DNA of 64,000 nucleotides from assembly GCF_002854065.1 (NCBI RefSeq), contig NZ_CP024147.1. One strand, 5' to 3'. Source of the stretch: Escherichia coli. GTDB lineage: Bacteria; Pseudomonadota; Gammaproteobacteria; Enterobacterales; Enterobacteriaceae. The notes under the pieces were generated by a model. The model worked only from the letters and a program-made list of their open reading frames with translations, had not been told where the DNA came from and did no database searches. The translations under genes were made by a program, and so were the position numbers. Every line of letters starts with the position of its first letter. The first letter of the stretch is position 1. This document shows, in pieces, positions 3,960-52,273 of this stretch.

Positions 3960-4766
3960 ATGAAATTTGTCTCTTTTAATATCAACGGCCTGCGCGCCAG
4001 ACCCCACCAGCTTGAAGCCATCGTCGAAAAGCACCAACCGGATGTGATTGGCCTGCAGGAGACAAAAGTTCATGACGATATGTTTCCGCTCGAAGAGGTG
4101 GCGAAGCTCGGCTACAACGTGTTTTATCACGGGCAGAAAGGCCATTATGGCGTGGCGCTGCTGACCAAAGAGACGCCGATTGCCGTGCGTCGCGGCTTTC
4201 CCGGTGACGACGAAGAGGCGCAGCGGCGGATTATTATGGCGGAAATCCCCTCACCGCTGGGTAATGTCACCGTGATCAACGGTTACTTCCCGCAGGGTGA
4301 AAGCCGCGACCATCCGATAAAATTCCCGGCAAAAGCGCAGTTTTATCAGAACCTGCAAAACTACCTGGAAACCGAACTCAAGCGTGAAAATCCGGTGCTG
4401 ATTATGGGCGATATGAATATCAGTCCTGGCGACCTGGATATTGGCATTGGCGAAGAGAACCGTAAGCGCTGGCTGCGTACCGGAAAATGTTCTTTCCTTC
4501 CGGAGGAACGCGAATGGATGGAGAGACTGATGAGCTGGGGATTGGTTGATACCTTCCGCCATGCGAATCCCCAAACAGCAGATCGTTTCTCATGGTTTGA
4601 TTACCGCTCAAAAGGTTTTGACGATAACCGTGGTCTGCGCATCGACCTGCTGCTCGCCAGCCAACCGCTGGCAGAATGTTGCGTAGAAACCGGCATCGAC
4701 TATGAAATCCGCAGCATGGAAAAACCGTCCGATCACGCCCCCGTCTGGGCGACCTTCCGCCGCTAA
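3960..4766 (+). CDS. xthA: exodeoxyribonuclease III (268 aa)
   Basis: [36 protein letters not shown]... within ORF 3948..4766; start taken at the internal ATG giving 268 aa. Confidence 0.9.
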
Positions 4767-4932
4767 TTTAGCAGCTCTCCTGGCTCAAACTGGGTCAGGA
4801 GAATTAACCTTGAGAAAAATCAACAAACTGTCAGTAATGATTTGTTGCCTGCCGTCCTTTGTTATACCGTCACTGCGTTTTTAGTTGTCTGACCACTTCT
4901 CTATTATCAAGTTTGATATAGGAAACACCACG

Positions 4933-5643
4933 ATGAACGCTGAGCGTAAATTTCTGTTTGCCTGTCTTATTTTTGCGCTGGTCATTTACGCTATCCACGC
5001 TTTCGGTTTATTCGATCTGCTCACCGATTTACCCCACTTACAGACACTCATCCGCCAGAGCGGATTGTTCGGTTATAGCCTCTATATTCTGTTATTCATC
5101 ATTGCCACCCTCTTTCTGTTACCAGGAAGCATACTGGTGATCGCGGGAGGAATAGTTTTTGGCCCGCTCTTAGGGACACTACTCTCATTAATTGCCGCAA
5201 CGCTGGCCTCCTCGTGCTCATTCCTGCTGGCGCGCTGGCTGGGACGTGATTTACTGCTGAAATACGTTGGCCATAGCCATACCTTCCAGGCCATTGAAAA
5301 AGGCATTGCGCGTAATGGTATTGATTTTCTTATTCTGACCCGCTTAATCCCGTTGTTTCCTTACAATATTCAAAATTACGCTTACGGATTAACCACAATC
5401 GCCTTCTGGCCTTATACCCTTATTTCGGCACTCACGACCCTGCCCGGTATTGTTATTTATACCGTGATGGCAAGCGATCTCGCCAATGAAGGCATTACGC
5501 TGCGCTTTATTTTACAACTCTGTCTGGCGGGCCTGGCGCTGTTTATTCTCGTCCAGCTCGCCAAACTCTACGCCCGACACAAACATGTGGATCTGTCTGC
5601 TTCGCGCCGCAACCCACTTACTCACCCAAAAAATGAAGGATAG
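4933..5643 (+). CDS. ydjX: DedA/TVP38-family inner membrane protein (236 aa)
   Basis: ORF 4885..5643; start at MNAERKFLFACLIF gives 236 aa; multiple hydrophobic helices. Confidence 0.8.
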   Translation: MNAERKFLFACLIFALVIYAIHAFGLFDLLTDLPHLQTLIRQSGLFGYSLYILLFIIATLFLLPGSILVIAGGIVFGPLLGTLLSLIAATLASSCSFLLARWLGRDLLLKYVGHSHTFQAIEKGIARNGIDFLILTRLIPLFPYNIQNYAYGLTTIAFWPYTLISALTTLPGIVIYTVMASDLANEGITLRFILQLCLAGLALFILVQLAKLYARHKHVDLSASRRNPLTHPKNEG

Positions 5644-5647
5644 AACG

Positions 5648-6325
5648 ATGTTGCAACATTATTCAGTGTCATGGAAAAAAGGACTGGCTGCACTCTGCTT
5701 ACTGGCTGTTGCTGGGCTTAGCGGCTGCGATCAAAAAGAGAATGCGGCGGCAAAAGTGGAATACGACGGACTTTCGAACAGCCAACCGCTGCGCGTCGAT
5801 GCCAATAACCATACGGTAACCATGCTGGTGCAAATTAATGGTCGTTTCCTCACCGACGACACTCGTCACGGTATTGTGTTTAAAGATGGCTCCAACGGAC
5901 ATAAATCGCTGTTTATGGGTTATGCGACCCCGAAAGCATTTTATGAAGCCCTGAAAGAGGCAGGTGGTACACCGGGCGAAAACATGACGATGGATAATAA
6001 AGAAACGACTCATGTCACGGGCAGCAAACTGGATATTTCGGTCAACTGGCAAGGGGCGGCAAAAACGTATTCCTTCGATGAAGTGATTGTTGACAGTAAT
6101 GGCAAGAAACTGGACATGCGCTTTGGCGGTAATTTAACGGCAGCAGAAGAGAAGAAAACGGGTTGCCTGGTATGTCTGGATAGCTGCCCAGTCGGTATCG
6201 TCAGCAATGCGACATACACTTATGGTGCGGTCGAAAAACGCAGCGAAGTGAAATTCAAAGGTAATGCGTCGGTTCTCCCGGCCGATAACACGCTGGCAAC
6301 GGTTACCTTTAAAATCGCCGAATAA
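5648..6325 (+). CDS. ydjY: lipoprotein with Cys-rich motif (225 aa)
   Basis: ORF 5486..6325; start at MLQHYSVSWKKGLAALCLLAVAGLSGC (signal peptide plus lipobox LSGC); CLVCLDSCP motif near C-terminus. Confidence 0.75.
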   Translation: MLQHYSVSWKKGLAALCLLAVAGLSGCDQKENAAAKVEYDGLSNSQPLRVDANNHTVTMLVQINGRFLTDDTRHGIVFKDGSNGHKSLFMGYATPKAFYEALKEAGGTPGENMTMDNKETTHVTGSKLDISVNWQGAAKTYSFDEVIVDSNGKKLDMRFGGNLTAAEEKKTGCLVCLDSCPVGIVSNATYTYGAVEKRSEVKFKGNASVLPADNTLATVTFKIAE

Positions 6326-6340
6326 CAACCTTGATTAAGG

Positions 6341-7048
6341 ATGATGAAGATGCAATCGCGTAAAATCTGGTACTACCGTGCCACCATCATCATCCTGTTG
6401 TTCGCTACGCTGCTTGCATGGGCGCTGCTTCCGGGCGTCCATGATTTTATCAATCACAGCGTTGCGGCGTTTGCCGCTGTGGACCAACAGGGTATTGAAC
6501 GTTTTATTCAGTCTTACGGCACGCAGGCGGCTGTCGTCTCATTCTTTTTGATGATTTTGCAGGCCATTGCCGCGCCGCTACCCGCATTCTTGATTACTTT
6601 TGCTAACGCATCACTTTTTGGCGCATTCTGGGGCGGCGTGCTGTCGTGGACCAGTTCTATGGCTGGCGCGGCGCTATGCTTCTTTATCGCCAGAATAATG
6701 GGCCGTGAAGTGGTGGAAAAGTTAACAGGCAAAACGGTACTCGACAGCATGGACGGCTTTTTTACCCGCTACGGCAAACACACCATTCTGGTATGTCGGT
6801 TATTGCCTTTTGTCCCTTTCGATCCAATCAGCTATGCTGCCGGTTTGACTTCAATACGTTTTCGCCAGTTTTTTATCGCCACCGGGCTCGGTCAGTTACC
6901 GGCGACCATTGTCTATTCCTGGGCGGGTAGCATGTTAACGGGTGGTGCATTCTGGTTTGTCACCGGACTGTTTATTCTGTTTGCCCTGACCGTGGTGATT
7001 TTTATGGCGAAAAAAGTATGGCTTGAACGCCAGAAGAGGAATGCCTGA
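6341..7048 (+). CDS. ydjZ: DedA/TVP38-family inner membrane protein (235 aa)
   Basis: ORF track 6341..7048; hydrophobic, paralogous in pattern to ydjX. Confidence 0.8.
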   Translation: MMKMQSRKIWYYRATIIILLFATLLAWALLPGVHDFINHSVAAFAAVDQQGIERFIQSYGTQAAVVSFFLMILQAIAAPLPAFLITFANASLFGAFWGGVLSWTSSMAGAALCFFIARIMGREVVEKLTGKTVLDSMDGFFTRYGKHTILVCRLLPFVPFDPISYAAGLTSIRFRQFFIATGLGQLPATIVYSWAGSMLTGGAFWFVTGLFILFALTVVIFMAKKVWLERQKRNA

Positions 7049-7596
7049 TGGGGTTACCACCGCTTAGCAAAATTCCTTTAATTTTACGCCCGCAGGCGTG
7101 GCTGCATCGTCGCCATTACGGTGAGGTGCTAAGTCCAATTCGCTGGTGGGGGCGAATTCCGTTTATCTTTTATCTGGTGTCGATGTTTGTCGGTTGGCTG
7201 GAGCGCAAACGCTCACCGCTCGATCCAGTGGTGCGATCGCTTGTCAGCGCGCGTATTGCGCAAATGTGCTTGTGTGAGTTTTGCGTGGATATCACCAGTA
7301 TGAAAGTCGCCGAGCGTACCGGCAGCACCGATAAACTGCTGGCAGTGGCTGACTGGCGGCAAAGCCCGCTCTTCAGCGACGAAGAGCGGCTGGCGCTGGA
7401 GTACGCCGAAGCCGCCAGCGTTACGCCGCCAACTGTGGATGATGCCCTGCGCACCCGACTGGCTACACATTTTGACGCTCAGGCACTCACCGAGCTTACG
7501 GCTTTGATCGGCTTACAAAACCTGTCGGCTCGTTTTAATTCTGCCATGGACATTCCTGCCCAGGGGCTGTGCCGACTTCCTGAAAAACGTTCTTAA
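7048..7596 (+). CDS. ynjA: AhpD-like / carboxymuconolactone decarboxylase family protein (182 aa)
   Basis: ORF track 7048..7596; ATG overlaps ydjZ stop (TGATG). Confidence 0.75.
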   Translation: MGLPPLSKIPLILRPQAWLHRRHYGEVLSPIRWWGRIPFIFYLVSMFVGWLERKRSPLDPVVRSLVSARIAQMCLCEFCVDITSMKVAERTGSTDKLLAVADWRQSPLFSDEERLALEYAEAASVTPPTVDDALRTRLATHFDAQALTELTALIGLQNLSARFNSAMDIPAQGLCRLPEKRS

Positions 7597-13022: not shown

Positions 13023-13430
13023 ATGAAAATGATTGAAGTTGTTGCCGCCATCATTGAACGTGATGGCAAAATTTTACTCGCGCAACGCCCCGCCCAGAGC
13101 GATCAGGCGGGATTATGGGAGTTTGCCGGTGGTAAAGTCGAGCTGGATGAAAGCCAGCAGCAGGCGCTGGTGCGTGAGTTAAACGAAGAATTGGGCATCG
13201 AAGCAACTGTGGGTGAGTATGTTGCCAGCCATCAGCGAGAAGTTTCGGGCCGGATTATCCATCTTCATGCCTGGCACGTACCCGACTTCCACGGGACGTT
13301 ACAGGCACATGAACATCAGGCGCTGGTCTGGTGCTCACCTGAAGAGGCGCTGCAATATCCGCTGGCCCCTGCTGACATTCCATTATTAGAGGCGTTTATG
13401 GCTTTACGCGCCGCCAGACCAGCGGATTAG
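13023..13430 (+). CDS. nudG: Nudix hydrolase, CTP/dCTP pyrophosphohydrolase (135 aa)
   Basis: Nudix box GGKVELDESQQQALVRELNEELGI. Confidence 0.85.
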   Translation: MKMIEVVAAIIERDGKILLAQRPAQSDQAGLWEFAGGKVELDESQQQALVRELNEELGIEATVGEYVASHQREVSGRIIHLHAWHVPDFHGTLQAHEHQALVWCSPEEALQYPLAPADIPLLEAFMALRAARPAD

Positions 13431-13668
13431 TGCTAAGGGTTTTGTCATCCCGCTGGCATTGCAGCAGTATTCCCTCGGCTTTAATTACCGCGCCTTCAGA
13501 ATAATTTTTATCCTGATAAACGCAGCACTGAGTACAGGGCTGCGCTGATTGCCCGCCTGAACTGAACACTTCTGGCGGTACGTTTACCTCCACGTCCGGA
13601 CGATAATGCGGGTTAGCCAGTGCAATTAATGGAAATGCTAATACTACGGCGAACAATGCTCGACTCAC
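13396..13668 (-). CDS. ynjH: small secreted protein, DUF1496 family (90 aa)
   Basis: ORF track; signal peptide MSRALFAVVLAFPLIALA; 3' end overlaps nudG 3' end by 35 nt. Confidence 0.7.
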   Translation of the reverse strand: MSRALFAVVLAFPLIALANPHYRPDVEVNVPPEVFSSGGQSAQPCTQCCVYQDKNYSEGAVIKAEGILLQCQRDDKTLSTNPLVWRRVKP

Positions 13669-15363: not shown

Positions 15364-16402
15364 TTATGAGTATTTAACGGATGATGCTCCCCAGGGAACA
15401 TTTCTTATGGGCCAACGGCATTTCTTACTGTAGTGCTCCCAAAACTGCTTGTCGTAACGATAACACGCTTCAAGTTCAGCATCCGTTAACTTTCTGCGAT
15501 AGCAGCAGATATGCCAGTAAAGAAATCCCATTAGACTATTTTTTTGATAATCTTCTTCGCTTTCGAACAACTCGTGCGCCTTTCGAGAAGCAAGCATTAT
15601 ATAATGCCAGGCCAGTTCTTCTTCAATTGTCCCGTTTTGAAAAGCTGTGCTTGATATCGAGATCATCCATGATAATTCCGCCGCCCATATTAGCTTCGCC
15701 GAGGATTTACCGGAGCTATGATTAGCGCAATCAGAGATATAGTCTGAGGGAAAACAGCAAATTTATTCAACAAGGCGATAACCTGCTCTGGGGCTTCCTC
15801 CATGTTTGCTTTAAAGGTATTGGCTCCATGGTCGCCAGAAAGAAAATGCTCCATTAAGGCACAATAACTTTCGCTATCTTCGATACCCCATTGATCCTCT
15901 AAAGACTCGCGTCTTTTACTTATGATATCGATCGAGTCAAAAGGAAGCACATGATATTGGAAGGTATCTTTGCCAGGTTCAGGCTTTCGCGGCCAGAACT
16001 CCAGCGTTTCAGACCATTGCTTATGATAGAATCGATAAGGTGCGATCAATTGTAGCGCCTGTAATTTCTCGATACTGAGCGGCTCAATACCTTTAGCCTG
16101 ATAATAATGCAGCTGTTCTTTTTTTGCTTTAAAACCGGCCCGAACAATAAGCCCCATCATAATTAATAGATAAAGAAAAGAGCATCCCGCGGTAATCAGG
16201 CCTCTTTCATTCAAACCTTTGGATGTTATCGCTGCGAATACAAACATTACAGCGACAACACATGTTAAATACCCCCCCACTTACAAAGCAGCATGGCCTT
16301 ATTTTCTTTAATCATCCGTTCAAAATTACTATTAAATATTTCCCAGCCATTAAAAGAATACTTCTCGCTCCCAGGATGGTTTTGTAATAAAACTTTTTTC
16401 AT
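15364..16402 (-). pseudogene. ynjI: ynjI-like inner membrane protein gene split across three reading frames (apparent pseudogene)
   Basis: Three abutting ORFs in three frames (16402..16265, 16280..15690, 15666..15364); span from MKKVLLQNHPGSEKY start to final stop is 1039 nt, two short of a 346-codon frame; first break at a C7 homopolymer (16272-16278). Confidence 0.55.
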
Positions 16403-42710: not shown

Positions 42711-44186
42711 ATGATTCAGTCAACACGTATTTCCATGGGGTTATTCTTTAAATGTTTTTTATCGTTAACGAAAATTGATCCTGGTCAAAACTATATATCT
42801 CTGCCATCAATAAAATCCAGCACTCACATTGCTCTCCTTTTTATGGTTTCTATGGGTACACAAAAATTAAAAGCTCAAAGCTTTTTTATTTTCAGTTTAT
42901 TGCTGACGTTAATTTTATTTTGCATTACTACCTTATATAACGAAAACACAAATGTAAAACTCATCCCACAGATGAATTACCTGATGGTTGTTGTGGCTTT
43001 GTTTTTCCTTAACGCCGTCATTTTTCTTTTCATGTTAATGAAATATTTCACTAACAAACAAATTTTACCAACACTCATTTTAAGCCTTGCATTTTTAAGT
43101 GGCCTTATCTATTTAGTTGAAACCATTGTAATTATCCATAAACCAATTAACGGCAGTACACTGATCCAGACAAAGTCGAATGATGTTTCTATTTTCTATA
43201 TTTTCCGCCAACTCAGTTTTATTTGTTTAACCTCGCTGGCGCTCTTTTGTTATGGAAAAGACAACATCCTTGACAACAATAAGAAAAAAACTGGCATTCT
43301 GTTGCTGGCGCTGATTCCTTTTTTAGTTTTTCCCCTTCTGGCACACAATCTGAGCAGTTATAACGCTGACTATTCTTTGTATGTCGTCGATTACTGTCCG
43401 GACAACCATACTGCGACCTGGGGAATCAACTATACAAAAATATTGGTTTGTCTGTGGGCATTTTTACTGTTCTTTATTATCATGCGTACACGATTAGCCA
43501 GCGAACTATGGCCGTTAATAGCATTATTATGTCTGGCATCGCTATGCTGCAACTTACTTCTACTGACTCTGGATGAGTATAATTATACCATCTGGTATAT
43601 CAGTCGCGGGATTGAAGTCTCCAGTAAACTGTTTGTTGTGTCTTTTCTGATTTATAACATTTTTCAGGAGCTGCAACTCTCCAGCAAACTGGCAGTTCAT
43701 GATGTGCTGACCAATATTTATAATCGGCGCTACTTTTTCAACAGCGTAGAGTCATTATTGTCGCGACCTGTTGTTAAGGACTTCTGTGTCATGCTGGTTG
43801 ATATTAATCAGTTCAAACGCATCAATGCCCAATGGGGACATCGTGTGGGTGATAAAGTGCTGGTTTCAATTGTCGATATTATCCAGCAAAGCATCCGCCC
43901 CGATGATATTTTAGCGCGACTGGAGGGTGAGGTGTTTGGCTTGCTATTTACCGAACTCAATAGTGCCCAGGCAAAAATCATTGCGGAACGTATGCGTAAA
44001 AATGTCGAACTCCTGACCGGCTTTAGTAACAGATATGATGTTCCTGAACAAATGACCATCAGTATTGGCACGGTTTTTTCAACGGGTGACACGCGTAATA
44101 TCTCGCTTGTCATGACGGAAGCAGATAAAGCCTTACGCGAAGCGAAAAGCGAGGGGGGCAACAAAGTGATTATTCATCATATTTAA
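42711..44186 (+). CDS. yeaI: membrane protein with degenerate GGDEF domain (491 aa)
   Basis: N-terminal multi-TM region; C-terminal GGDEF-like domain whose signature reads EGEVF (LARLEGEVFGLLF). Confidence 0.8.
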   Translation: MIQSTRISMGLFFKCFLSLTKIDPGQNYISLPSIKSSTHIALLFMVSMGTQKLKAQSFFIFSLLLTLILFCITTLYNENTNVKLIPQMNYLMVVVALFFLNAVIFLFMLMKYFTNKQILPTLILSLAFLSGLIYLVETIVIIHKPINGSTLIQTKSNDVSIFYIFRQLSFICLTSLALFCYGKDNILDNNKKKTGILLLALIPFLVFPLLAHNLSSYNADYSLYVVDYCPDNHTATWGINYTKILVCLWAFLLFFIIMRTRLASELWPLIALLCLASLCCNLLLLTLDEYNYTIWYISRGIEVSSKLFVVSFLIYNIFQELQLSSKLAVHDVLTNIYNRRYFFNSVESLLSRPVVKDFCVMLVDINQFKRINAQWGHRVGDKVLVSIVDIIQQSIRPDDILARLEGEVFGLLFTELNSAQAKIIAERMRKNVELLTGFSNRYDVPEQMTISIGTVFSTGDTRNISLVMTEADKALREAKSEGGNKVIIHHI

Positions 44187-44366
44187 GTGCAAAAATATTC
44201 AGAGCCATGCTTTTTGCGTGGCTTTTGCATACAATTTATTACTATTACCCCTAAATTTCCCCTCCCCAGCGGCGCAGAGATGAGTATAATTAGCGCCCCT
44301 GTGCCAGGCCGCAATCGAACTTTATCTGGTTTTCTCGTTTCACTAACCGAAGGAGTGCCATTTATC

Positions 44367-45857
44367 ATGAAATTGCACCATAGAATGCTCCGGCATTTTA
44401 TCGCCGCAAGTGTCATTGTGCTGACATCTTCCTTCCTTATTTTTGAACTTGTCGCCAGCGACAGAGCAATGAGTGCCTATCTGCGCTATATCGTGCAGAA
44501 AGCAGACTCCTCCTTTCTTTATGATAAGTATCAGAATCAGAGTATTGCCGCGCATGTGATGCGCGCTCTCGCTGCTGAGCAGTCGGAAGTGTCGCCAGAA
44601 CAGCGGCGCGCCATCTGCGAGGCTTTTGAGTCTGCCAATAATACCCATGGCTTAAACCTGACTGCCCATAAATACCCGGGCTTACGCGGCACACTACAAA
44701 CCGCATCCACTGACTGCGACACAATTGTGGAAGCTGCAGCACTATTACCCGCTTTTGATCAGGCAGTGGAAGGCAACCGCCACCAGGATGATTACGGTTC
44801 AGGTCTTGGGATGGCCGAAGAGAAATTTCACTATTATCTCGATCTCAATGACCGCTATGTCTATTTTTATGAGCCGGTTAATGTTGAATACTTTGCGATG
44901 AATAACTGGTCCTTCCTGCAGTCAGGAAGTATTGGCATCGATCGCAAAGATATTGAAAAGGTATTTACCGGGCGTACCGTATTGTCGAGCATTTACCAGG
45001 ATCAGCGTACTAAACAGAACGTGATGAGTTTGCTGACGCCGGTGTATGTTGCAGGGCAGCTAAAAGGGATTGTGCTGCTGGATATTAACAAAAACAATCT
45101 GCGGAATATCTTTTACACTCATGACCGCCCTCTCCTCTGGCGTTTTCTCAATGTCACGCTAACCGATACAGATTCGGGGCGCGACATTATCATCAACCAG
45201 AGCGAAGATAATCTGTTCCAGTATGTCAGTTACGTCCATGACTTACCGGGCGGCATTCGTGTCTCGTTATCCATTGATATTCTTTACTTTATCACGTCTT
45301 CGTGGAAAAGCGTTCTGTTCTGGATTTTGACGGCGTTAATTTTGCTGAATATGGTGCGGATGCACTTCCGCTTATACCAAAATGTGTCGCGAGAAAATAT
45401 TAGTGATGCGATGACTGGACTGTATAATCGCAAAATTTTAACCCCTGAACTGGAGCAGCGGTTGCAGAAACTGGTGCAATCCGGTTCTTCGGTGATGTTT
45501 ATTGCAATTGACATGGACAAGTTAAAGCTAATAAATGACACCCTCGGTCATCAGGAAGGGGATTTAGCGATTACGTTGTTAGCTCAGGCGATTAAACAAT
45601 CGATTCGTAAAAGTGATTATGCCATCCGACTCGGTGGCGATGAATTCTGCATCATTCTTGTCGATTCGACGCCGCAAATTGCATCACAACTACCTGAACG
45701 TATCGAAAAACGTCTGCAACATATCGCGCCGCAGAAAGAGATCGGCTTCTCTTCCGGTATTTACGCGATGAAAGAAAACGATACGTTACATGATGCGTAT
45801 AAAGCTTCCGATGAGCGTTTATATGTCAATAAGCAGAACAAAAACAGCCGTTCATGA
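44367..45857 (+). CDS. yeaJ: membrane-anchored diguanylate cyclase with periplasmic sensor domain (496 aa)
   Basis: ORF 44187..45857; start at MKLHHRMLRHFIAASVIVL; intact GGDEF signature (IRLGGDEFCIIL). Confidence 0.8.
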   Translation: MKLHHRMLRHFIAASVIVLTSSFLIFELVASDRAMSAYLRYIVQKADSSFLYDKYQNQSIAAHVMRALAAEQSEVSPEQRRAICEAFESANNTHGLNLTAHKYPGLRGTLQTASTDCDTIVEAAALLPAFDQAVEGNRHQDDYGSGLGMAEEKFHYYLDLNDRYVYFYEPVNVEYFAMNNWSFLQSGSIGIDRKDIEKVFTGRTVLSSIYQDQRTKQNVMSLLTPVYVAGQLKGIVLLDINKNNLRNIFYTHDRPLLWRFLNVTLTDTDSGRDIIINQSEDNLFQYVSYVHDLPGGIRVSLSIDILYFITSSWKSVLFWILTALILLNMVRMHFRLYQNVSRENISDAMTGLYNRKILTPELEQRLQKLVQSGSSVMFIAIDMDKLKLINDTLGHQEGDLAITLLAQAIKQSIRKSDYAIRLGGDEFCIILVDSTPQIASQLPERIEKRLQHIAPQKEIGFSSGIYAMKENDTLHDAYKASDERLYVNKQNKNSRS

Positions 45858-45899
45858 TAACCTTCTGTGATTGTTTGCTTGTAATCTCAGGAGCATGAA

Positions 45900-46403
45900 A
45901 TGACTGAAATGGCTAAAGGAAGCGTGACGCATCAGCGGTTAATCGCTTTATTATCACAAGAAGGTGCTGATTTCCGCGTCGTTACCCATGAAGCGGTAGG
46001 TAAATGTGAAGCGGTGTCAGAAATTCGTGGCACCGCTCTAGGCCAGGGTGCTAAGGCACTGGTATGTAAAGTCAAAGGCAATGGCGTAAATCAACATGTT
46101 CTGGCAATCCTCGCAGCCGATCAACAGGCCGATCTGAGCCAACTCGCCAGCCATATAGGCGGATTACGCGCTTCGTTGGCCAGCCCGGCGGAAGTCGATG
46201 AACTCACAGGCTGTGTCTTCGGCGCGATCCCCCCTTTCAGCTTCCATCCAAAACTCAAACTGGTTGCCGACCCTCTACTCTTCGAACGATTTGATGAAAT
46301 CGCCTTCAATGCAGGCATGCTGGATAAATCCGTTATTTTGAAAACCGCGGATTATTTGCGCATTGCGCAACCAGAACTGGTCAATTTCCGCCGCACTGCG
46401 TAA
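45900..46403 (+). CDS. yeaK: YbaK/ProX-type aminoacyl-tRNA deacylase-like protein (167 aa)
   Basis: ORF track 45900..46403. Confidence 0.8.
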   Translation: MTEMAKGSVTHQRLIALLSQEGADFRVVTHEAVGKCEAVSEIRGTALGQGAKALVCKVKGNGVNQHVLAILAADQQADLSQLASHIGGLRASLASPAEVDELTGCVFGAIPPFSFHPKLKLVADPLLFERFDEIAFNAGMLDKSVILKTADYLRIAQPELVNFRRTA

Positions 46404-46508
46404 CTAGCCTGTCCGTTCAATAAGCAGAACGGACAAAACCAGCACAACCGCAATGGCAAAAAACGATGACGTGATAATCAGTGTCTCGACGAACATTTGA
46501 TCGTTCAT
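46404..46508 (-). CDS. yoaI: small membrane protein (34 aa)
   Basis: Reverse strand ATG at 46506-46508: [34 protein letters not shown]; abuts yeaK stop. Confidence 0.6.
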
Positions 46509-46677
46509 AGCATGCCCCCGGGAGATAGCTGTTTTCACGTTATTGTTAGCGTGCACAAATGGCAGTTTGATGACAGTTCGCCTGATTTTTTATGCAAAAA
46601 ACGTAAAGATTTTCTACTTCCTTCCTGCAGCAAGCGTAAAGTAAGCAGGCTTATTATTTTTTGGCAAGGAAACCACG

Positions 46678-47124
46678 ATGTTTGATGTCACTTTGCTGAT
46701 CCTGCTCGGGTTAGCTGCGCTGGGCTTTATCAGTCATAACACCACTGTCGCCGTTTCAATTCTGGTGTTGATTATTGTCCGCGTCACACCGTTAAGCACC
46801 TTTTTCCCGTGGATTGAAAAACAGGGGCTAAGTATCGGGATAATCATTCTGACGATTGGCGTTATGGCCCCCATCGCCAGCGGGACGCTACCGCCCTCAA
46901 CCCTGATTCACTCGTTTCTGAACTGGAAATCGCTGGTGGCAATTGCAGTAGGCGTTATTGTCTCCTGGCTGGGGGGGCGCGGCGTGACGTTAATGGGCAG
47001 CCAGCCGCAACTGGTCGCCGGGCTGCTGGTGGGCACTGTTTTAGGCGTGGCGCTGTTTCGCGGCGTACCGGTTGGCCCGCTTATTGCCGCGGGTCTGGTT
47101 TCGCTGATTGTGGGGAAGCAGTAG
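46678..47124 (+). CDS. yeaL: UPF0756-family inner membrane protein (148 aa)
   Basis: ORF track; four hydrophobic helices. Confidence 0.8.
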
Positions 47125-47902
47125 TTAATCCCGCAATATATCGGCCTGGCGTTTGCCCCAGGCCTTTCTTAAACATAGTAATAAAGGCTGTTGTTGAATC
47201 ATACCCCAGCGTATGAGCAACTTTCTGTACAGTATCGCCTTTCACTAATCCCTGAAGCGCCATAATCAGCTGTAACTGCTGACGCCACTGGCGAAAACTC
47301 AACCCCGTCTCTTTTACTATCAGTCGGGCAAGATTGCGTTCACTCATCGCAAAAAAGCCAGCCCATTGCCCCAATGAGCCCCACTCGACGGGCTCTTTCG
47401 CCATCATCTCCACCATCGTGCGGATTTTAGGATGAGAAGAAACGGGCAAGTGCAGCTGTTGTTGTGGCTGCTGAGGGAGTTCATCAAACAGGACCTGAAT
47501 TAATCTGCAGGTCATCGGCTCAGCACGCTGAGTCGTCGTCCTGTTTGCCAGGGTTAAAATCAATTCCCGGCATAAGGGCGATATTTTCAATGTGCAACAT
47601 GTTGTCGGCATTGTCACTGCGCTGGGTTCGATAAACAGAAAACAGAGTTCAGCGTTAGCTGTCACTTGATTGCTATGCTTCACCCCGCCCGGTATCCAAA
47701 CCGCATATTGTGGCGGCACCATCCACAAAGCATTTTCCACCGTACAGGTAATTGCACCATGTAATGCTAGTATCAGCTGTCCTTTGCGGTGCTGATGTAC
47801 AGGACTGGTTAACTCATCCGTTCCGGCGTGAATACAAAATGCGACCGCGGCTTCATGGTGTCGGTCGGGTTCATAGCCATTGAGATTCAACCTGTGCATC
47901 AT
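47081..47902 (-). CDS. yeaM: AraC-family transcriptional regulator (273 aa)
   Basis: Cupin-like N-terminal domain plus C-terminal AraC HTH; 3' end overlaps yeaL 3' end by 44 nt. Confidence 0.8.
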
Positions 47903-47998
47903 TTTGTCCGAATATAGCGATAATTTGTCATTTTAGCTTGATTCAACATAACAATAAAAACGGTAAGGTACAGCCTCGTTTGTAACAATGAGAAGCAT

Positions 47999-49180
47999 AT
48001 GACCTGTTCAACTTCATTAAGCGGCAAAAACAGGATTGTCCTTATCGCTGGCATTCTGATGATTGCCACTACATTACGCGTCACCTTCACCGGCGCTGCA
48101 CCGTTACTCGATACGATTCGTTCCGCTTACTCGCTGACGACAGCGCAAACCGGCTTATTAACCACCCTGCCATTATTGGCCTTTGCGCTAATCTCACCTC
48201 TGGCTGCCCCGGTGGCGCGACGTTTTGGTATGGAACGTAGCCTGTTTGCCGCGTTACTTTTGATCTGTGCTGGTATCGCAATTCGCTCTCTCCCTTCGCC
48301 TTACTTATTATTTGGCGGTACAGCGGTCATTGGCGGTGGGATTGCATTAGGTAATGTCTTACTGCCAGGATTAATTAAACGCGATTTCCCTCATTCCGTC
48401 GCCAGACTTACCGGCGCATATTCCCTGACAATGGGAGCTGCGGCGGCCCTGGGATCGGCTATGGTAGTGCCGCTGGCTTTGAACGGTTTTGGCTGGCAAG
48501 GCGCGTTGCTCATGCTGATGTGTTTTCCTCTGCTGGCTCTTTTTTTATGGCTGCCACAGTGGCGAAGCCAACAACATGCAAATTTGAGTACTTCACGCGC
48601 CTTACATACTCGGGGTATCTGGCGTTCGCCGCTTGCCTGGCAGGTAACATTGTTTCTTGGGATCAACTCACTGGTCTATTACGTGATTATTGGCTGGCTT
48701 CCGGCGATCCTCATCAGTCACGGCTATAGCGAAGCACAGGCGGGTTCACTGCATGGTTTGCTGCAACTAGCCACAGCAGCTCCCGGTTTGCTGATCCCTC
48801 TTTTCTTACATCATGTGAAAGACCAGCGTGGTATTGCAGCGTTCGTTGCCTTGATGTGCGCAGTGGGCGCGGTTGGGCTCTGCTTTATGCCAGCGCACGC
48901 GATCACCTGGACTCTGCTTTTCGGTTTTGGTTCCGGCGCAACAATGATACTGGGGTTGACGTTCATTGGTCTGCGGGCTAGTTCTGCGCATCAGGCGGCG
49001 GCACTCTCGGGGATGGCACAATCCGTCGGGTATTTGTTGGCAGCCTGTGGGCCGCCGCTGATGGGTAAAATACACGATGCTAACGGTGACTGGTCCGTAC
49101 CACTAATGGGTGTTGCAATACTTTCACTACTGATGGCGATTTTCGGACTTTGCGCCGGGAGAGACAAAGAAATTCGCTAA
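47999..49180 (+). CDS. yeaN: MFS transporter (393 aa), divergent from yeaM
   Basis: ORF track 47999..49180. Confidence 0.8.
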   Translation: MTCSTSLSGKNRIVLIAGILMIATTLRVTFTGAAPLLDTIRSAYSLTTAQTGLLTTLPLLAFALISPLAAPVARRFGMERSLFAALLLICAGIAIRSLPSPYLLFGGTAVIGGGIALGNVLLPGLIKRDFPHSVARLTGAYSLTMGAAAALGSAMVVPLALNGFGWQGALLMLMCFPLLALFLWLPQWRSQQHANLSTSRALHTRGIWRSPLAWQVTLFLGINSLVYYVIIGWLPAILISHGYSEAQAGSLHGLLQLATAAPGLLIPLFLHHVKDQRGIAAFVALMCAVGAVGLCFMPAHAITWTLLFGFGSGATMILGLTFIGLRASSAHQAAALSGMAQSVGYLLAACGPPLMGKIHDANGDWSVPLMGVAILSLLMAIFGLCAGRDKEIR

Positions 49181-49234
49181 TATCCGGTGCTATAGTGACG
49201 TGACAAATCATGCGTGAAAGGGAGAACAAACACG

Positions 49235-49582
49235 ATGAATATTCAGTGCAAACGCGTTTATGATCCGGCAGAACAGAGCGATGGTTATCGCGTACTGGTC
49301 GACCGCCTCTGGCCGCGCGGTATCAAAAAAACCGATTTAGCCCTTGATGAGTGGGATAAAGAAATCACGCCGTCAACGGAACTGCGCAAAGCCTTTCACG
49401 GCGAAGTCGTCGATTTTGCAACCTTTCGCGAGCAATATCTTGCAGAACTGGCACAACACGAGCAAGAAGGAAAGCGGCTGGCGGACATCGCCAAAAAACA
49501 GCCGCTGACCCTGCTCTACTCAGCAAAAAACACCACGCAGAACCATGCGCTGGTGCTGGCCGACTGGCTACGTAGCTTGTGA
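49235..49582 (+). CDS. yeaO: DUF488 family protein (115 aa)
   Basis: ORF 49214..49582; start at MNIQCKRVYDP. Confidence 0.75.
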   Translation: MNIQCKRVYDPAEQSDGYRVLVDRLWPRGIKKTDLALDEWDKEITPSTELRKAFHGEVVDFATFREQYLAELAQHEQEGKRLADIAKKQPLTLLYSAKNTTQNHALVLADWLRSL

Positions 49583-49603
49583 TTTTAGTACAGCATCCGG
49601 CGG

Positions 49604-49858
49604 TTATTTTTCACCAGCCGGATGGTCCCGTCGCCACAATGCCCATTCATCAATCGTTTCACCGCCCGGTAATTTGCAATTGTTGCTGACCCCTTGCGCT
49701 GTCTGCACTGGAATGAGCGTCCCGCCCTTCTGCTGGCAATAGACCGACACCGGATTTGCCATACCAATCTGCGGCGGTTTAGGTGCTTCTGGCTGAGAAG
49801 GGGTTGAACAACCAGCCAGGACCAGCAAGCAAGGCAGAACAAAACTGATAATTTTCAT
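49604..49858 (-). CDS. yoaF: DUF333-family lipoprotein (84 aa)
   Basis: Signal peptide plus lipobox MKIISFVLPCLLVLAGCS. Confidence 0.75.
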   Translation of the reverse strand: MKIISFVLPCLLVLAGCSTPSQPEAPKPPQIGMANPVSVYCQQKGGTLIPVQTAQGVSNNCKLPGGETIDEWALWRRDHPAGEK

Positions 49859-50040
49859 TTATTGATCTCACATATGTATCCAAGCTTAGAGTATCGCGGT
49901 ATCGTTTTGTTTTGCAGCACTATTTTTATTACATTCACTCAAAACATATTACGTCTTATTTCATCTTTGTTGATGATGTTTTATCATGCCTGCAAAGATT
50001 AAATAATCAGCATTTACCCGCCGTATCCTGGAGTTGTTCC

Positions 50041-51066
50041 GTGTCAGATCAGATTATCGCCCGCGTCTCGCAATCCCTTGCCAAAGAACAGTCACTGGAA
50101 AGTCTGGTCCGACAGCTTCTGGAGATGCTGGAAATGGTCACTGATATGGAATCAACCTACCTGACCAAAGTGGATGTCGAAGCGCGCCTGCAGCATATTA
50201 TGTTTGCCCGTAACAGCCAGAAAATGCACATCCCGGAGAATTTTACCGTCTCGTGGGATTACTCGTTATGCAAACGCGCCATTGATGAAAACTGCTTTTT
50301 CAGCGATGAAGTCCCTGACCGTTGGGGCGACTGTATTGCGGCACGCAATCTTGGCATCACCACATTTCTGAGCACGCCAATTCACTTACCGGATGGATCA
50401 TTCTATGGCACGCTTTGCGCCGCCAGCAGTGAGAAGCGCCAGTGGAGTGAACGCGCGGAACAGGTTTTACAGTTATTCGCCGGACTGATTGCACAATATA
50501 TTCAAAAAGAGGCATTGGTTGAACAGCTGCGCGAAGCTAATGCTGCGCTGATTGCGCAATCGTATACCGACTCGTTAACCGGGCTACCGAATCGGCGGGC
50601 GATTTTTGAAAATCTGACGACGCTGTTTTCCCTCGCCCGGCATCTTAACCATAAGATAATGATCGCGTTTATCGATCTGGATAACTTCAAATTAATCAAT
50701 GATCGTTTTGGTCATAATAGTGGCGATCTGTTTCTCATTCAGGTTGGCGAGCGCCTTAATACGCTCCAGCAAAATGGCGAAGTTATTGGTCGTCTCGGTG
50801 GTGATGAGTTTTTGGTTGTTTCACTAAACAACGAGAATGCGGATATTTCGTCGCTGCGAGAACGTATTCAACAGCAAATACGTGGAGAATATCACTTAGG
50901 TGATGTTGATTTGTATTATCCCGGTGCCAGTCTTGGCATAGTAGAAGTCGATCCTGAAACGACCGATGCAGACAGTGCCCTGTATGCTGCCGATATCGCG
51001 ATGTATCAGGAGAAAAAACACAAACAGAAAACACCTTTTGTCGCGCATCCAGCGCTACATTCCTGA
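50041..51066 (+). CDS. yeaP: GAF-GGDEF diguanylate cyclase (341 aa), GTG start
   Basis: ORF 49912..51066; annotated-length start at GTG 50041 (VSDQIIARVSQ); intact GGDEF (GRLGGDEFLVV). Confidence 0.8.
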   Translation: MSDQIIARVSQSLAKEQSLESLVRQLLEMLEMVTDMESTYLTKVDVEARLQHIMFARNSQKMHIPENFTVSWDYSLCKRAIDENCFFSDEVPDRWGDCIAARNLGITTFLSTPIHLPDGSFYGTLCAASSEKRQWSERAEQVLQLFAGLIAQYIQKEALVEQLREANAALIAQSYTDSLTGLPNRRAIFENLTTLFSLARHLNHKIMIAFIDLDNFKLINDRFGHNSGDLFLIQVGERLNTLQQNGEVIGRLGGDEFLVVSLNNENADISSLRERIQQQIRGEYHLGDVDLYYPGASLGIVEVDPETTDADSALYAADIAMYQEKKHKQKTPFVAHPALHS

Positions 51067-51913: not shown

Positions 51914-52273
51914 TCATTTCCCGTTATGAATGACTTTCCGTTGTTGCGCACCTTCCATCAGGACTTCAGGAGCCACGAAGAAGTCAATGTTGAAATAAGT
52001 ATCGTCAGTCATGGCTTCAATGTTGTGCCACTTTTCTGGAGGGAACACCGCAAACTGCCCCGCTTCGATAAGGATCACCTGATCAGGCTCTGCACTGTGT
52101 TCATCAGCGTAGCCGAGATATTTGACCGCCCCATGCATAACGGAAAGGCGTGGGTAAACCCCCGGGCGCGTTCCTTTATCAAGATGACGTTCGAATATTC
52201 CGGCAGGCGCAGTTTGTTTATTCCAGAAAGGCGTTGAGCGCGTATGAATATAATTCTGTGGGATTTGCAGCAT
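51914..52273 (-). CDS. yeaR: DUF1971 protein (119 aa)
   Basis: ORF track 51914..52273. Confidence 0.8.
   Translation of the reverse strand: MLQIPQNYIHTRSTPFWNKQTAPAGIFERHLDKGTRPGVYPRLSVMHGAVKYLGYADEHSAEPDQVILIEAGQFAVFPPEKWHNIEAMTDDTYFNIDFFVAPEVLMEGAQQRKVIHNGK

Follow-up and report, generated by a model that had tools for sequence, protein, structure and literature searches.

Convergent overlap of yeaL and nimR

In the 64,000-nt stretch of Escherichia coli DNA analyzed here (the window), the genes yeaL and nimR (yeaM) run toward each other on opposite strands and share their 3′ ends (Table 1). Both open reading frames (ORFs) are genuine conserved genes, with orthologues across 80 Enterobacteriaceae loci. 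YeaL matches the Pfam family DUF441 over residues 7 to 145 (E = 2.7e-44). NimR has the architecture of the AraC/XylS family, with a C-terminal double helix-turn-helix (HTH) (HTH_18, residues 180 to 255, E = 1.7e-18; HTH_AraC, residues 224 to 256) and an N-terminal cupin/AraC-type ligand domain (AraC_binding, residues 22 to 150). It is a single-target regulator, whose target is the spacer between yeaM and yeaN (nimR/nimT) (PMC5934670).

The original prediction, made from the letters alone, held that the two coding sequences (CDSs) share 44 nt. This length is exact: the ORF list, the sequence itself, and six E. coli annotations agree on it. On the yeaL side, the overlap comprises codons 135 to 148 and the stop codon (TAG, 47122-47124 on the plus strand), and encodes the terminal part of the protein's last hydrophobic segment. 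On the nimR side, it comprises codons 260 to 273 and the stop codon (47081-47083, reading TTA on the plus strand and TAA on the minus strand), and belongs to the tail beyond the HTH domain. yeaL and nimR are, by definition, convergent (tail-to-tail) overlapping protein-coding genes. Because the CDSs overlap, the full-length mRNAs of the two genes overlap as well; the accompanying claim that the transcript ends are antisense to each other thus also holds, with complementarity over at least 44 nt.

Annotation shows the identical 44-nt overlap in K-12 MG1655 (yeaL, 1874352..1874798; nimR, 1874755..1875576), in strain 100416, and in four further E. coli strains, including ST131 and O157, which were picked down the identity ranking. 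The stretch 46400-48100 is 100% identical to that of strain 100416, and the 1.7-kb region is matched over at least 80% of its length in 5406 of the 5426 complete E. coli genomes.

Table 1. Features of the yeaL-nimR locus, in window coordinates
Feature	Position	Strand	Basis and remarks
yeaK	45900..46403	+	Upstream gene, with reported cotranscription with yeaL; annotation
yeaL CDS	46678..47124	+	148-aa ORF; DUF441/UPF0756 inner-membrane protein
nimR (yeaM) CDS	47081..47902	-	273-aa ORF; AraC-family regulator of nimT
CDS overlap, 44 nt	47081..47124	both	Six-frame ORF list and sequence reading
NimR C-terminal tail, 18 aa	47084..47137	-	Beyond the HTH end (...GQTPGRY); Pfam domain end and tail table
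nimR stop position of most other genera (17-nt form)	47108..47110	-	Alignments
Hairpin GGCCTGG-N8-CCAGGCC	47143..47164	+	Terminator scan; nimR codons 247-253 (GLGQTPG)
T-rich tract TTTCTTAAA	47165..47173	+	Directly after the hairpin; antisense of nimR codons F-K-K

Overlap length across Enterobacteriaceae

A scan for YeaL in one genome per species yielded the 80 Enterobacteriaceae loci, in which NimR was located by tblastn, its frame was extended to the stop codon, and the spacing was computed for each locus. The overlap measures 45, 44, 21, 20, 17, 6, 0, -1, -4, or -5 nt, with 17 nt being the commonest length. The 44-nt form is found in E. coli and in most of the Citrobacter freundii complex, and the 17-nt form in Klebsiella, Enterobacter, Raoultella, Kluyvera, Leclercia, Lelliottia, and others, as well as in C. 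youngae and in a record labeled E. coli E69. The genes overlap by 20 nt in the C. amalonaticus group, by 21 and 0 nt in two Salmonella subspecies, by 6 nt in Trabulsiella, and by 45 nt, in a different frame, in Yokenella. The values are negative in Cedecea (-1 nt), C. werkmanii (-4 nt), and Buttiauxella (-5 nt).

At the alignment columns that correspond to 47108-47110, the 17-nt species have TTA or TCA on the plus strand, which is TAA or TGA for nimR, and E. coli has TTG, which is read as CAA (Gln) on the minus strand. YeaL of the 17-nt species ends in ...L(F/L/I)IGK(S/Q), and it is the Ile codon (ATT or ATC), together with its neighbor, that forms the nimR stop codon; the YeaL codon at this place in E. 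coli is GTG (Val). Judged by this comparison, an Ile-to-Val change in YeaL (ATT/ATC to GTG/GTT) gave rise to the 44-nt form in E. coli and the C. freundii group, because it removed the antisense stop codon and let NimR extend by 9 codons.

In a general model of overlapping-gene origin in prokaryotes, reportedly set out, for example, by Rogozin et al. in 2002 and Fukuda et al. in 2003, tail-to-tail overlaps arise via stop-codon loss and C-terminal extension. The yeaL-nimR pair is a textbook instance of this model, with no notable difference from it: an antisense stop codon was lost via one yeaL codon change, and NimR was extended.

The E69 record (CP089930.1), which carries the 17-nt allele, has a NimR that is only 88% identical, and its 83-nt junction has no match at ≥95% identity in 5408 complete E. 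coli genomes. It probably represents a divergent or mislabeled Escherichia lineage.

Constraint on the two reading frames

Among the 14 species with the 44-nt form, the YeaL amino acid sequence within the overlap is invariant (0 of 1274 pairwise differences). The amino acid divergence of NimR, in contrast, is 0.289 in the tail versus 0.064 in the HTH region (~4.5-fold) and 0.10 overall. Across genera, the tail varies not only in length (2 to 22 aa) but also in sequence.

Within the overlap, codon position 1 of nimR lies opposite position 1 of yeaL, and the wobble position of yeaL lies opposite position 2 of nimR, so that every synonymous change in yeaL alters the NimR tail. Such changes are frequent: in the same 14 species, the synonymous divergence of yeaL is about equal in the overlap (0.316) and in the rest of the gene (0.362). 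Because the synonymous sites of yeaL are not slowed in the overlap, the nimR frame adds no detectable constraint. On this pattern of substitutions, the constrained partner is the end of yeaL, and the NimR tail is its passenger.

The length of 44 nt does not exceed the chance expectation. When the YeaL protein was held fixed, its codons were resampled, and the nimR frame was followed into yeaL from where its HTH domain stops (20,000 trials), the median overlap to the first antisense stop codon was 68 nt, and 64% of the trials gave an overlap of at least 44 nt.

Conservation of the gene arrangement

Most of the genera in which the two genes are neighbors keep them tightly packed, with a spacing of -5 to +45 nt. 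In several non-coli Escherichia (E. albertii, E. whittamii, and others), nimR is missing beside an intact yeaL. Five loci lack nimR there; in one of them (Escherichia sp. E1V33), nimR-nimT is absent and yeaO follows 61 nt after yeaL (4447..4508 of the locus), and in another one nimR is reduced to a remnant of ~40 codons. In Kosakonia, Phytobacter, and their relatives, a four-gene amino-acid ABC transporter operon separates nimR from yeaL. The operon of Kosakonia quasisacchari (4427..7518 of the locus, on the nimR strand) encodes SBP_bac_3, ABC_tran, and two BPD_transp_1 permeases. It places nimR 3.3 kb from yeaL, and the spacing is similar in seven further loci. The last ABC permease gene in K. 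quasisacchari itself overlaps the 3′ end of yeaL, by 21 nt. Taken at the level of gene order, the adjacency of yeaL and nimR is dispensable, and the 3′ end of yeaL is easily read into from the opposite strand.

Over the stretch that corresponds to the window, 11 convergent pairs are annotated in strain 100416. The genes nudG (+, 13023..13430) and ynjH (-, 13396..13668) have a 35-nt CDS overlap (13396..13430), yeaK and yoaI abut with a gap of zero (yeaK ends at 46403 and yoaI, on the minus strand, at 46404), and the spacing is 8 nt in the convergent pair ynjF/ynjE and 21 nt in yoaF/yeaO. The nudG/ynjH pair, which lies ~34 kb away, resembles yeaL/nimR in being a convergent CDS overlap of similar size that is also listed as an excludon (PMC12288877), and differs in the genes involved.

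Strain 100416 (NZ_CM128593.1) differs from the window by 10 mismatches over 15521-52162. It carries IS1B in a DUF1266 gene and IS421 in yeaR, both of which are absent from the window; the insertion sites are at 15521..15528 and about 52152..52162 in window coordinates. The window thus derives from a different, though closely related, E. coli, and coordinates transferred from strain 100416 were used only within 15521-52162.

A candidate yeaL terminator within nimR

Starting 19 nt past the yeaL TAG, the plus strand of the nimR coding sequence contains a hairpin that is followed by a T-rich tract (Table 1). With a 7-bp stem (6 GC), an 8-nt loop, and then UUUCUUAAAC, the element has the layout of an intrinsic terminator. 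In the consensus scan (47143-47173), the loop reads cgtttgcc and the sequence after the stem reads TTTCTTAAAC. The hairpin has a ΔG of -12.7 kcal/mol in the window sequence and is present in the minimum free energy (MFE) fold of 47095-47180, a region whose z-score of only -1.25 indicates no unusual stability. Both arms contain a Dcm site (CCTGG, 47145..47149; CCAGG, 47158..47162). A second hairpin, across the yeaL stop codon (47107-47137), is also in the MFE fold, but 67% of its cells pair, which is not above controls, and it was rejected.

The stem is perfect in 17 of the 19 Escherichia/Citrobacter loci (-12.7 to -19.6 kcal/mol) and is followed there by 5 to 6 U; the hairpin is also intact in both Salmonella loci. 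The counterparts of the T-rich tract in Citrobacter and Salmonella are TTTTTTGAA/TTTTTTAAA, and U makes up five of the first eight bases of the tract in E. coli versus six of eight in Citrobacter. Most other genera have either a weak hairpin (-3.6 to -8 kcal/mol) or no U-tract. Across 44 in-register sequences, 78.6% of the stem cells are paired, and one pair covaries (CG to GC).

At four synonymous sites of the stem, the mean pairwise difference among the 19 Escherichia/Citrobacter sequences is 0.079, compared with 0.46 gene-wide and 0.65 at three sites of the loop. Only 0.036% of random four-site draws were as conserved as the stem sites (P = 4e-4), in a test that was chosen post hoc, after the hairpin had been seen. 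The codon for NimR K246 is AAA in 19 of 19 sequences. We regard the synonymous conservation of the stem as moderate evidence, from sequence comparison, for a maintained hairpin, and we predict that the hairpin and the T-rich tract are probably an intrinsic terminator of yeaL embedded in nimR.

Terminators embedded in the convergent neighbor, and bidirectional terminators of convergent pairs, were reportedly found with SEnd-seq by Ju et al. in 2019. The yeaL element resembles the embedded type, with its GC-rich hairpin and T-rich tract located just past the stop codon and within the convergent partner. It differs from bidirectional terminators: on the minus strand, the hairpin sits in the translated nimR ORF, 60 nt before the stop codon, and is followed by GATATATTGCGGG rather than by a U-tract.

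Alternatively, the hairpin could be a coincidence of the AraC motif G-L-G-Q-T-P-G-R and no terminator at all, in which case yeaL transcripts would end elsewhere, either through Rho or after running on antisense to nimR. Such a coincidence is possible because Gly GGN and Pro CCN are reverse complements, and the amino acids G-L-G...P-G-R indeed dictate three of the 7 stem pairs. The stems use the preferred codons GGC and CTG and both contain CCWGG, and very-short-patch repair could bias the conservation of Dcm sites (CCWGG) independently of RNA structure; the synonymous conservation might then reflect codon preference combined with Dcm/Vsr repair bias at the two sites. The modest z-score of the fold also fits a coincidence, as do a Citrobacter locus that keeps CCAGG yet breaks the pairing, the degraded hairpin of Klebsiella, Enterobacter, and Kluyvera despite the same gene arrangement, and the searched Term-seq tables, which list no 3′ end for yeaL or nimR. 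However, 18 of the 19 sequences encode this Pro by CCA rather than by the preferred CCG; Dcm does not distinguish T from A at the W position; and column 50, which is outside CCWGG, is conserved nonetheless. Moreover, just 6.7% of the other invariant Gly, Leu, and Pro codons of nimR are equally conserved at the third position. The location of the element so close behind the stop codon, the T-rich tract that follows it, and the invariant AAA of K246 likewise speak against chance. We therefore consider a coincidence unlikely, although by no means far-fetched, and retain the embedded terminator as the preferred reading of the hairpin.

Transcription through the locus

By SMRT-Cappable-seq, yeaK and yeaL form a novel operon (b1787|b1789) with a transcription start site (TSS) at K-12 position 1873543, and no transcription termination site (TTS) was reported near the overlap (PMC6131387). 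With an offset of 1827674 between K-12 and window coordinates, this TSS converts to 45869. Supplementary file 2 of Adams et al. 2021 contains a Rho-termination region between yeaK and yeaL that peaks at K-12 position 1874225 (+). This peak corresponds to 46551 (+), in the promoter and 5′ region of yoaI. Read counts upstream and downstream of the region are 73 and 36 without bicyclomycin (BCM) and 120 and 166 with it (Rho score, 2.8), and about half of the reads continue past the region without bicyclomycin (Adams et al. 2021). Because of the Rho region at 46551, only part of yeaK transcription would reach yeaL. The level of yeaL RNA is low (36 to 67 normalized counts in the PhoB study), and the supplementary tables of Adams 2021 and TERMITe 2025 contain no mapped 3′ ends of yeaL or nimR. 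To reach yeaL, the yeaK-yeaL transcript must cross, in antisense, all of yoaI, which encodes a PhoB-activated small membrane protein.

On the minus strand 3′ of the nimR stop codon, the consensus scan detected no terminator-like site, and folding gave no unusual structure (z = +0.53). Over 46900-47150, G exceeds C on the plus strand, and the RNA of the nimR strand is therefore C-rich and G-poor there, a composition that would be compatible with Rho-dependent termination. An Rfam scan of 44000-50500 gave nothing above threshold and two sub-threshold chance hits. A JUMPstart hit at 46884..46913 (-), antisense to yeaL, scored 21.5 bits against a gathering threshold of 35 (E = 0.35) and was taken as chance.

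Is the pair a selected excludon?

The yeaL-nimR pair is listed among the 165 convergent excludons that ExcludonFinder reported for E. coli MG1655 (Sanmartin et al., NAR 2025, PMC12288877), each of which was detected in half or more of 58 MG1655 RNA-seq data sets. Four other pairs from the window (yeaK-yoaI, yeaO-yoaF, nudG-ynjH, and ynjE-ynjF) are on the same list. In the same study, 146 of the 165 convergent pairs have predicted overlapping terminators, and excludon pairs show higher synteny and less single-cell co-expression, figures that describe the class and not yeaL-nimR itself; validation of double-stranded RNA (dsRNA) with p19 was not feasible for convergent excludons (PMC12288877). 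ExcludonFinder calls transcript ends from the coverage that flanks each CDS (PMC12288877), and because of this, expression of both genes would be nearly enough for a pair with overlapping CDSs to be called.

In its layout, the locus resembles convergent excludons, and is itself one of the listed loci: transcripts from opposite strands overlap, and a terminator-like signal lies inside the partner gene. It differs in that its listing is an RNA-seq coverage call, whereas mutual exclusion is the behavior that defines the class, and in that the overlap includes the CDSs rather than 3′ untranslated regions alone and is evolutionarily labile in length.

The original prediction had raised transcriptional interference or RNase III-dependent coupling between the two genes. 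As a selected convergent excludon, the pair would be subject to mutual interference between yeaK-yeaL and nimR transcription, through colliding RNA polymerases or through cleavage of the 3′ duplex by RNase III, and expression of the membrane protein and of NimR (and, through it, of the NimT transporter) would be mutually exclusive. The presence of the pair in the MG1655 excludome and the properties of the class (overlapping terminators, higher synteny, and lower single-cell co-expression) are in line with this explanation (PMC12288877), and so are the spacing of -5 to +45 nt, which is kept in most of the Enterobacteriaceae loci examined, and the synonymous-site conservation of the terminator-like hairpin within nimR. 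On the other hand, the caller would flag overlapping CDSs almost as a matter of course, dsRNA validation failed for convergent excludons generally, both overlap length and NimR tail are unconstrained, expression is low, and relatives with an intact yeaL have lost nimR-nimT or carry the 3.3-kb operon in between. No functional link of YeaL to nitroimidazole transport is known, and we found no support in the literature for interference or RNase III coupling that is specific to this pair. We judge a selected excludon to be improbable. Even less probable, in our opinion, is a more specific version, in which the zero-spacer arrangement and the maintained hairpin together constitute a regulatory excludon, with yeaK-yeaL transcription lowering NimR through polymerase collision or through RNase III cleavage of a ~90-nt 3′ duplex, and with its entry into yeaL gated by Rho at 46551.

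The chance that the overlap is an annotation artefact, with one frame really ending before its annotated stop codon, was considered because the NimR tail is unconserved, but it found no support and is negligible, given that each of the two ORFs has a strong family match and ends at its first in-frame stop codon, the C terminus of YeaL is kept to the last residues over 80 loci, nimR has no in-frame stop from the end of the HTH domain to 47081, and the NCBI annotation agrees in six genomes.

Gene packing as the likely origin of the overlap

We conclude that two real genes genuinely overlap here and that the overlap is most likely a by-product of gene packing, not a purpose-built element. The genes yeaL and nimR lie end to end with no spacer, and we propose that the nimR stop codon shifts its position along the antisense of the strongly constrained yeaL 3′ end, a drift that the unconstrained NimR tail past the AraC HTH domain would permit. 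In most Enterobacteriaceae, the nimR stop codon is found 17 nt inside yeaL; by comparison, its loss in E. coli and the C. freundii group let NimR read 9 codons further, to 44 nt.

Because there is no intergenic DNA, the termination signal of yeaK-yeaL appears to lie inside nimR. This would put the 3′ end of the plus-strand transcript near 47170-47173 and make it complementary to about the last 90 nt of the nimR mRNA. We infer that nimR, which has no intrinsic terminator past its stop codon, is probably terminated by Rho acting on the antisense RNA of yeaL, which is rich in C and poor in G. The resulting antisense overlap of transcripts is then an unavoidable side effect, and probably a weak one at the low expression of these genes. 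Mutual repression, if it occurs, should likewise be weak and should not be the force that maintains the 44-nt length.

Several observations weigh against the by-product explanation. The tight packing that most genera with both genes adjacent have retained, and the higher synteny and lower single-cell co-expression of excludons as a class (PMC12288877), make some selected antisense effect conceivable, and the hairpin and T-rich tract are weak in E. coli itself. Nevertheless, the variable overlap length, the passenger tail, and the loss or displacement of nimR argue, as far as comparative data go, that the 44-nt overlap is unlikely to be a selected device.

The overlap as such is already known: the reference annotation of E. 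coli has shown it for decades, and the pair is catalogued as a convergent excludon. What the present analysis adds is that the overlap length looks labile and neutral, apparently set by stop-codon drift in the unconstrained NimR tail, and that a likely terminator of yeaL is embedded in the coding sequence of nimR. If reciprocal regulation were true, the pair would be one more among about 165 and would, in addition, link DUF441 to a drug-transport regulon. A regulatory excludon, if true, would tune NimT-dependent nitroimidazole sensitivity and would provide the first functional handle on the uncharacterized DUF441 protein YeaL. The yeaL/nimR overlap is a real, ordinary, and known feature, and it cautions that neither a CDS overlap nor a coverage-based "excludon" call alone implies selected antisense regulation.
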